IMG/VR virus record: IMGVR_UViG_3300029953_000630
Length of the DNA: 28,081 nt
Source of the DNA: a virus
Direction: 5' to 3' (one strand)
A program made the position numbers and the translations under genes. The notes beneath the pieces are model-generated. The model worked only from the letters and a program-made list of their open reading frames with translations. It made no database searches and was not told where the DNA came from. Each line of letters starts with the position of its first letter. Within the stretch, counting starts at the first letter, position 1. Shown here one piece after another: positions 6,617-6,699 of the stretch.

Positions 6617-6699
6617 GTTACATCCCCGGAAAGTCTCGGGGTTCGATTGAAACTAATGCACCGTTACATCCCCGGAAAGTCTCGGGGTCAGATTGAAAC
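6617..6699 (+). repeat. Two copies of the 37-nt CRISPR-repeat-like hairpin repeat separated by a 9-nt spacer
   Basis: 6617-6653 GTTACATCCCCGGAAAGTCTCGGGGTTCGATTGAAAC. 6663-6699 has the same sequence with TCAGATTG in place of TTCGATTG. A short ORF (6552-6650) reads into the first copy. Confidence 0.6.

Follow-up and report, generated by a model that had tools for sequence, protein, structure and literature searches.

A closely spaced pair of type I-G CRISPR repeats in a phage tRNA island, best read as a non-targeting satellite formed by recombination

The stretch of DNA analysed here (IMG/VR record IMGVR_UViG_3300029953_000630; 28,081 nt, hereafter the window) is phage DNA. It encodes homologues of rIIA (E = 1.1e-98) and rIIB (E = 2.3e-56), along with Ku, an MVP-shoulder-like protein, an HNH protein, an R2K ATP-grasp protein and an ArgRS-like DALR protein. 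ARAGORN detected 13 tRNA genes, all on the + strand between 544 and 9997, to which Rfam adds more. Megablast of 25 kb against the INPHARED phages gave no match. The 10 kb downstream of the window contain tail-fibre-like genes only and do not reach the cas operon described below, and the contigs upstream end at the repeats at 86–153. At 6617–6653 and 6663–6699 lie two repeats of 37 nt each, identical at 35 of 37 positions; their 9-nt spacing is as the initial annotation had stated. The features of the locus and its surroundings are:

86..153, + strand, two abutting repeat units with a spacer of 0 nt (units 86–122 and 123–153)
6152..6181, + strand, sigma-70-like promoter match TTGACA-N18-TAATAT (10/12 positions match)
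6552..6650, + strand, 32-codon open frame (ATG at 6552; GAGGAAG 7 nt upstream; TGA at 6648–6650, inside repeat 1)
6617..6653, + strand, CRISPR repeat copy 1 (37 nt, GTTACATCCCCGGAAAGTCTCGGGGTTCGATTGAAAC), with 5' tail 6617–6623, hairpin 6624–6641 (stem 6624–6629 with 6636–6641), 4-nt linker TTCG 6642–6645 and 8-nt handle ATTGAAAC 6646–6653
6654..6662, + strand, 9-nt insert TAATGCACC, the pseudo-spacer between both repeats
6663..6699, + strand, CRISPR repeat copy 2, with linker variant TCAG and handle 6692–6699
6739..6815, + strand, tRNA-Met (CAT), 39 nt 3' of repeat 2
7238..7502, + strand, four-repeat mini-array (repeats 7238–7274, 7325–7361, 7389–7425 and 7458–7494)

Within the repeat, the stem occupies positions 8–13/20–25, the linker positions 26–29 and the handle positions 30–37. 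The sole change of copy 2 relative to copy 1 is at positions 27–28 (TC to CA), and the variation between copies in general (TTCG, TCAG, TCCG, TCTG and TTAG) falls exactly in the linker. The hairpin already proposed was recovered on folding, with a 6-bp stem, a 6-nt loop and an energy of −9.6 kcal/mol. By itself this energy is unremarkable (z = −0.66 versus shuffles), and the repeat was judged real because of its copy number, its strand bias and its relatives elsewhere rather than because of its folding energy. An intrinsic terminator at the hairpin was considered and rejected: a T-run is absent 3' of the hairpin, and the terminator scan returned no such site there.

Eight copies of the core pattern CCCGGAAAGTCTCGGGGNNNGATTGAAA are present in the 28-kb window, every one on the + strand, compared to 0.00 expected from 100 dinucleotide shuffles. 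The copies (the pair and the units at 86–153 and 7238–7502) form three clusters, all intergenic and co-oriented with the genes and tRNAs; random occurrence across coding regions was not seen. In the cluster at 86–153, one stem C is missing from the first unit and the 5' tail from the second; at 175–204 comes a strong promoter-like site, and the locus is syntenic with a promoter-driven 3-repeat mini-array in the relative L011. The mini-array at 7238–7502 has spacers of 34, 27 and 24 nt and extra tandem 8-nt handle units at 7275–7290, 7426–7433 and 7495–7502; the number of these extra ATTGAAAG units differs among near-identical strains. Its last repeat-plus-flank unit is a tandem duplication with a 69-nt period (window 7389–7521), and a tandem duplication of repeat plus flank is also found in L003. 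Some mini-array spacers are copies of their own flank, and the units without a usable spacer have intervals of 0, 9, 11 and 12 nt.

Three diverged relatives (the window, L003 and L007) all have co-oriented repeats in their tRNA islands. L003 has 4 copies among 12 tRNAs, and in L007 one repeat ends 2 nt before an ATG. Across the diverged relatives the hairpin is exact or carries 1 substitution, while the flanks are ~73% identical. That the hairpin is conserved and recurs in tRNA islands hints that the repeats are selected for some function and are not just neutral remains, a point against the reading preferred below; the conservation could also be due to gene conversion from a master array.

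When public collections were scanned for the core pattern, the only contigs to carry the repeat were viral and metagenome ones of peat type, and in five of these (L017–L021) repeats identical to copy 1, with a leader and unique 29–36-nt spacers, directly follow csb2. In L017, for example, four repeats with unique 36-, 29- and 29-nt spacers lie directly 3' of the Csb2 ORF (TIGR02165). The gene order on these contigs, which reach 8.2 kb, is a Mom-like gene, cas3g, the gene of a 249-aa protein, cas7g/csb1, csb2, leader and array. Cas3g matches TIGR02621 (E = 4.8e-130, 436 bits versus a cutoff of 400), Cas7g matches TIGR02570 (57 bits versus 38) and Csb2 matches TIGR02165 (65 bits versus 45); Pfam PF09609 and PF09617 also match proteins of the operon. 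Csb2 (P0001) is full length with conserved motifs but gave no match against PDB sequences, and relatives of neither Csb2 nor the X-region protein were found in IMG/VR. The 249-aa protein, which stands in the place of a recognisable Cas8g, has no family match, and cas1, cas2 and cas4 are absent from the cas-operon contigs. A 283-aa LAGLIDADG/MJ0330_N-like ORF upstream of the cas operon led to uninformative contigs only.

In characterized type I-G systems, Csb2 cuts 4 nt 3' of the hairpin base, leaving the canonical 8-nt 5' handle, and remains on the 3' hairpin, with seven Cas7 subunits lining the crRNA (PMC9638904). The 6-bp hairpin, 4-nt linker and 8-nt handle of the repeat fit this published cleavage geometry (PMC9638904). 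Because the identical repeat adjoins cas3g, cas7g and csb2, the units are, as judged from sequence, bona fide subtype I-G CRISPR repeats and not a separate class of element. The initial annotation had proposed solitary repeat units or a processing element in preference to an array. The view of solitary or degenerate units rather than a working array held up. As to processing, a Cas6-type cut, with the repeats co-oriented with the flanking tRNAs, seems the most plausible kind, but the idea of a distinct processing element did not survive the assignment to type I-G. It had also been argued that 9 nt is too short for a CRISPR spacer, and the pair indeed falls short of guide length, spacers in the cas-adjacent arrays being mostly 29–36 nt; these arrays also hold 'spacers' of 9, 12 and 17 nt. 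No protospacer of the cas-adjacent or mini-array spacers was found in all collected loci or in IMG/VR, and a search for partial regulatory targets in the cas operon or the window gave only 8–11-nt matches at chance level.

The resemblance to a circularly permuted tRNA T-arm that had been noted, in which GGGGTTCGATT looks like a T-stem plus T-loop, turned out to be superficial. Neither ARAGORN nor Rfam (at gathering score and at E ≤ 1) gave a match on 6617–6699, be it tRNA, tmRNA or another Rfam family, the Rfam tRNAs lying only elsewhere, and within the repeat family variation is greatest at the 'TTC' of the supposed T-loop, which corresponds to the type I-G linker between the hairpin and the Csb2 cut (PMC9638904). 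The 32-codon ORF is likewise an open frame with a Shine–Dalgarno-like GAGGAAG ahead of it and a stop inside repeat 1, as described, but it is not conserved as a gene: it is cut to 5 codons in L013 and L016, was called as a gene in only one of ten related contigs and has no NCBIfam match. Comparison of the alleles suggests that the frame at 6552–6650 is probably not a gene, and that the locus should be a tRNA-derived or T-arm-like element, or a small protein gene with a hairpin-shaped end, is extremely improbable.

Among 185,579 species-representative genomes, the exact repeat had no match, and a scan of genomes with a degenerate pattern found only a related repeat family in Acidobacteria and single chance-like matches. 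The nearest bacterial operons, with Csb2 proteins 51–57% identical, are those of an Acidobacteriaceae MAG and Candidatus Sulfotelmatobacter, i.e. Acidobacteria of the same habitat type, and Acidobacteria are likely to be the host clade of the peat phage. The acidobacterial repeat, GTTGCAATCCCCGC(5 nt)GCGGGGTGGAATTGAAAG, with spacers of 35–37 nt, has the same layout of tail, stem, linker and handle and is ~65–70% identical to the window repeat. By inspection, its stem shows one two-sided change (G-U to C-G), with C-G to U-A in a variant copy.

These relationships bear on the owner of the Cas proteins. If the cas operon belonged to the host, repeats expressed from a highly transcribed phage tRNA island could serve as an RNA anti-CRISPR (Racr)-like decoy, soaking up Csb2 and Cas7 in dead-end subcomplexes and so blunting host type I-G immunity. 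Viral solitary repeats that mimic host repeats sequester Cas6 and Cas7 and inhibit CRISPR in a dose-dependent manner (Camara-Wilpert et al. 2023, PMC10651486); like Racrs, the units described here are repeat mimics in intergenic phage DNA, and those without a usable spacer could sequester a Cas6-type nuclease plus Cas7 (PMC10651486). A decoy is also consistent with i) the 8 co-oriented copies in the window and the further copies in other tRNA islands of its relatives, ii) the presence of several units without a usable spacer (0, 9, 11 and 12 nt), iii) the conservation of hairpin and handle against diverged flanks, iv) the absence of a detectable target of any spacer in the collected loci or IMG/VR, and v) the position of the nearest bacterial operons in Acidobacteria of the same habitat type. 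However, no host with a matching repeat was found among the 185,579 genomes scanned, the nearest bacterial repeats being the ~65–70% identical ones, and the only cas operon with the exact repeat adjoins phage-type DNA and a Mom-like gene and is phage-like in composition. Moreover, Racr candidates are by definition solitary, not associated with cas genes and preceded by a promoter within 250 bp (PMC10651486), whereas the units here form doublets, abutting units and clusters of 3–4 repeats in a lineage with an apparent link to a cas operon of its own; the second copy of the pair is only 9 nt away, and within 250 bp no dedicated promoter is apparent, the nearest promoter-like site being ~440 nt upstream in a scan that shows no enrichment over shuffles. 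The pair is thus neither solitary nor cas-independent, two of the properties required of a Racr or SRU. We consider a decoy role unlikely, though a serious alternative. Racrs have been tested for types I-C, I-E, I-F and V-A, with I-G not among them (PMC10651486); if the operon were in fact host-encoded, the repeats would represent multi-copy Racr-type decoys for a subtype so far without Racr tests.

Carriage of the cas operon by the phage lineage rather than by the host appears fairly likely. The DNA following the array of L021 encodes an ART-PolyVal protein, a 237-aa protein and a peptide deformylase, a block that is syntenic (38% identity) with 123–310 kb phage-like contigs carrying PNKP, T4 RNA ligase 1 (T4 Rnl1), GP88 and many small ORFs, and in L016 the same post-array DNA is joined to the tRNA segment of the window, which favours phage carriage. 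A Mom-like PHROG lies upstream of cas3 and has a 72% homologue in an IMG/VR contig. The tetranucleotide profile of the cas operon correlates better with the window (r = 0.72) than with the bacterial flanks (0.21), while the homologous bacterial operon gives 0.80 with its own flanks, although phage and host are often alike in composition, so that similarity of this kind cannot tell a phage from its real host. The cas-adjacent arrays are tiny and irregular, as in phage systems without Cas1/2/4; phage CRISPR systems mostly lack these proteins and have compact arrays (PMC7162821). Against phage carriage, the window and the cas operon occur on no one contig and are connected only via L021 plus L016/L013, Csb2 lacks relatives in IMG/VR, and L021 might represent a site at which a phage has recombined into a host array. 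If phage carriage is true, the range of CRISPR systems in large phages would be extended by subtype I-G.

The csb2-adjacent array of L021 opens with leader, repeat, TAATGCACC and a repeat of the TCAG type, i.e. with the 83-nt module found at 6617–6699 of the window. Alleles of the pair were compared among contigs with an identical neighbouring 62-aa gene (14 sequences including the window). The two-repeat module is present in the window, L025, L027, L028, L031 and L034, as well as in the variant L030, and is the commonest allele (7/14 sequences, window included), which also counts against the reading preferred below. One-repeat alleles, in which the 9-nt insert is absent, are found in L026, L032, L033 and L008, and in L029 a 24-nt deletion between two GGAAAGT microhomologies has left half a repeat. 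In L013 and L016 the locus is replaced by a different junction, where the TCAG variant, the second repeat in L021, is the only full repeat and is accompanied by a degenerate downstream copy. In L016, a single repeat links window positions 5618–6557 (100% identity, 940 nt) with the DNA lying after the L021 array (98.6%, 661 nt). In addition, the terminal degenerate repeat patch of the L020 array sits, in L008, inside the cluster corresponding to 7325–7458.

Because of the shared module, the polymorphism, the hybrid junctions, the patch transfer, the tandem duplications and the handle variation, these alignments show repeat-to-repeat recombination and slippage, rather than acquisition by Cas1–Cas2, as what would seem to have shaped the loci, the doublet being one product. 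Standalone repeats have been attributed to the recombinogenic nature of repeats (PMC10120712). The 9-nt insert, which has no further match in the window or the cas operon, is probably a recombination scar. The dispersed repeats might also serve at the DNA level as portable homology for recombining with, integrating into or capturing CRISPR arrays, whether the phage's own, those of a rival phage or those of the host, the doublet then being a captured leader-proximal array end. The identical 83-nt module at the leader end of the L021 array, the hybrid junctions of L016 and L013 and the patch transfer in L008 all agree with such a role. However, the upstream flank of the pair shows no homology to the cas leader (score 15 versus a shuffle mean of 13.4, with 124 of 500 shuffles as good), and a role of this kind, which overlaps heavily with the explanation preferred below, accounts for the origin of the repeats but not necessarily for their function. 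As an explanation in its own right it seems improbable.

On balance, we incline to regard the pair as a mini-array of two repeats, degenerate and non-guiding, that belongs to a type I-G CRISPR system associated with the phage lineage. It is best read as a non-targeting satellite formed by recombination and not as a tRNA-like or new processing element; recombination between dispersed repeats, homologous or illegitimate, would have created the module and moved it. The pair would be transcribed on the + strand together with the upstream small ORFs and the tRNA-Met. The nearest upstream consensus match to a promoter, at 6152–6181, is ~440 nt from the pair, and since promoter-like matches in the region are no commoner than in shuffles, it can only tentatively be regarded as a promoter from which a single transcript might cover the 48-aa and 62-aa ORFs, the repeat pair and the tRNA-Met.

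By analogy with the characterized enzyme, the pair is probably bound and cut by Csb2. This Cas5–Cas6 fusion would bind each hairpin and cut 4 nt 3' of it, at 6645|6646 and 6691|6692, yielding three products: 1) the upstream mRNA, whose 3' end would be a hairpin bound by Csb2 and whose small ORF would be stripped of its stop codon, which lies 3' of the predicted cut; 2) a 46-nt stub made up of the 8-nt handle, the 9-nt insert and the 29-nt hairpin end; and 3) a downstream RNA with the 5' handle, 39 nt and the tRNA-Met. The mRNA would thereby be parted from the tRNA-Met precursor. The 17 nt ahead of the hairpin in the stub would hold at most 2–3 of the seven Cas7 subunits; the stub could therefore not recognise a target, and consequently the pair could not act as a guide. 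The sole plausible activities of the stub would be occupation (titration) of Csb2 and Cas7 and the cutting of the transcript. With Cas proteins of the phage itself, the pair would most simply be a by-product that is tolerated; with those of the host, identical chemistry would amount to a multi-copy Racr-like decoy (PMC10651486). The 9-nt doublet is most likely functionally minor.

Such cutting raises the question of whether the phage uses the repeats as punctuation, i.e. as Csb2 sites that cut tRNA–mRNA polycistrons at operon boundaries. The copies are all intergenic and co-oriented with genes and tRNAs, are found where genes end or shortly ahead of promoters or start codons (right behind the stop at 7237, 33 nt ahead of the ATG at 7527, 39 nt ahead of the tRNA-Met and, in L007, 2 nt ahead of an ATG) and recur in the tRNA islands of the three diverged relatives. 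However, there are only three clusters for at least 14 tRNAs, so that most tRNAs have no repeat nearby, and the maturation of tRNAs needs only RNase P and RNase Z. A copy number that varies from 0.5 to 2 among near-identical strains is also hard to fit with a required site, and we know of no precedent for Cas6-type punctuation of phage tRNA–mRNA polycistrons. We regard it as quite doubtful.

A broader version, which we hold to be a long shot, is that the phage has co-opted Csb2 and that the co-oriented I-G repeats it has spread over its tRNA islands act as functional RNA elements. Such elements could either provide Cas-dependent punctuation of the polycistrons or form repeat-spacer-tRNA units, in which the crRNA's 5' end would be made by Csb2 and the 3' end by RNase P; here such a crRNA would comprise the 8-nt handle and the 39-nt segment (6700–6738) up to the tRNA-Met. 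Under co-option, neither the doublet nor the variable ATTGAAAG handle tracts would be debris; both would act as tuning devices.

In comparison with described systems, the non-guiding mini-array that we prefer has partial counterparts. 1) Arrays of type I-G (formerly I-U), as in Thioalkalivibrio sulfidiphilus (PMC9638904), share with it a repeat of 36–37 nt in which a hairpin is followed by a 4-nt linker and an 8-nt ATTGAAA(C/G) handle, identical repeats adjoining cas3g, cas7g and csb2, and a predicted cut 4 nt 3' of the stem. Unlike these arrays, the pair is an orphan situated within a phage tRNA island at ~40 nt from a tRNA, it has a 9-nt spacer as against about 30–37 nt, and the associated operon has the 249-aa protein for Cas8g and no cas1/2/4 on its contigs. 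2) The mini-arrays of interviral conflict (Medvedeva et al. 2019, PMC6858448) likewise consist of one to a few repeat-flanked spacers on a virus, far from cas genes, but the spacer of the pair is too short, and the neighbouring spacers (24–34 nt) have no protospacer and are in some cases copies of their flanks. 3) The CRISPR-Cas loci of huge phages (Al-Shayeb et al. 2020, PMC7162821) resemble the system in their effector-only operon, arrays of 3–6 repeats and tRNA-rich large-phage context; they differ in that the present system is of type I-G, that its repeats are scattered over several loci, including tRNA islands, and that the linkage of operon and phage is inferred. 4) Standalone repeats and regulatory mini-arrays (Shmakov et al. 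2023, PMC10120712) also comprise two repeat-like sequences outside the main array and have a recombinogenic origin; regulatory mini-arrays have 20–60-bp spacers that partially match a target near cas genes (PMC10120712), whereas the 9-nt spacer has no partial match in the intergenic regions of the cas operon.

From these likenesses, the pair is taken to be part of a phenomenon already known, which comprises virus-borne mini-arrays, solitary repeats and phage CRISPR loci without adaptation genes; its side features, namely the clustering in tRNA islands, the handle VNTRs and the growth by tandem duplication, are unusual. A tRNA-rich peat phage with many I-G repeats, apparently linked to an effector-only I-G operon, provides a concrete, testable case of this phenomenon. 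While a recombination origin has already been proposed in the field for solitary repeats and regulatory mini-arrays, the alleles offer population snapshots of the birth of orphan repeats and mini-arrays by tandem duplication, microhomology deletion, inter-array patch transfer and slippage of the 8-nt handle.

As a minor observation, TAATGCACC has TAAT in common with the downstream flank of the window pair, TAATAGCG, and TGCACC in common with the segment that follows the module in L021 and L016, ACTTGCACC. Seen in the aligned letters, this sharing looks like a junction scar, or may be a mere 6-nt coincidence.

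Some of the 'spacers' of the mini-arrays are copies of the local flank, the repeat and its flank having been duplicated in tandem (69–71 nt) both in the window (7389-7521) and in L003 (4863-4969), a diverged relative; the mini-arrays therefore grow by duplication and not by spacer acquisition. On the 3' side of several repeats the 8-nt crRNA handle (ATTGAAAG/ATTGAAAC) is repeated in additional tandem copies. These copies, numbering 1 to 3 and varying among near-identical strains, lie at window 7275-7290, 7426-7433 and 7495-7502, and occur in L013 and L016 (relatives with the repeat-pair locus replaced) and in L021 (a peat contig with a cas-adjacent array). 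The acidobacterial array (L022), too, has one additional ATTGAAAC at its end, after its final repeat.

Co-oriented repeat copies were also found in other tRNA islands, those of the diverged relatives L003 and L007, and several tRNA genes of the window are longer than usual:

Window 544-639, long tRNA-Trp (96 nt)
Window 2011-2088, further tRNA missed by ARAGORN (Rfam, 37.6 bits, E-value scan only)
Window 3653-3786, tRNA match from Rfam only (134-nt span)
Window 3981-4073, long tRNA-Asn (93 nt)
Window 5497-5585, long tRNA-Lys (89 nt)
L003 4863-7989, tRNA island with 4 repeat copies and 12 tRNAs
L007 2643-2679, one repeat copy, 68 nt downstream of tRNA-Met, in an island of 8 tRNAs

The 134-nt span of the Rfam-only match suggests that it contains an intron. 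Adjoining three tRNA-Arg genes is the coding sequence (window 4380-5453) of a 357-aa ArgRS-like protein, which has a DALR anticodon-binding domain and a weak match to the catalytic domain.

Upstream of the repeat pair, the module GGGATTAGTCCGAGGAAGATCAACGATGTCA (window 6525-6557; L013 ~1430-1465, minus strand) comprises a stop codon, an SD sequence and an ATG. Depending on the relative, it terminates two different upstream genes, and a recombination breakpoint falls directly 3' of ATGTCA.

The phage-linked type I-G operon and its acidobacterial counterpart each have, at the position of the large subunit (Cas8g), a protein of 249–252 aa (L018 4898-5647; L022 8093-8851) for which no family match was found. 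Within the contig DNA examined, cas1/2/4 were not seen at either locus. Leader-proximal spacers are nevertheless unlike among the cas-adjacent arrays of L017, L018, L020 and L021, and the L020 array (2600-2920) includes spacers of 12 nt and 17 nt and ends in a degenerate repeat. A copy of the repeat's final 15 nt (GGGGTTCGATTGAAA) is also present within the 3' end of cas7 (L018 6638-6652), directly followed by the GTG start of csb2; this match (E=0.009, in a small database) may be due to chance, or else may represent a relic or a regulatory site.

Elsewhere in the window, an 819-aa phage protein (22504-24963), which is conserved in related contigs, contains shoulder and repeat domains of the major vault protein (PF11978, E=3.5e-26); its gene adjoins a PTH2-like gene.
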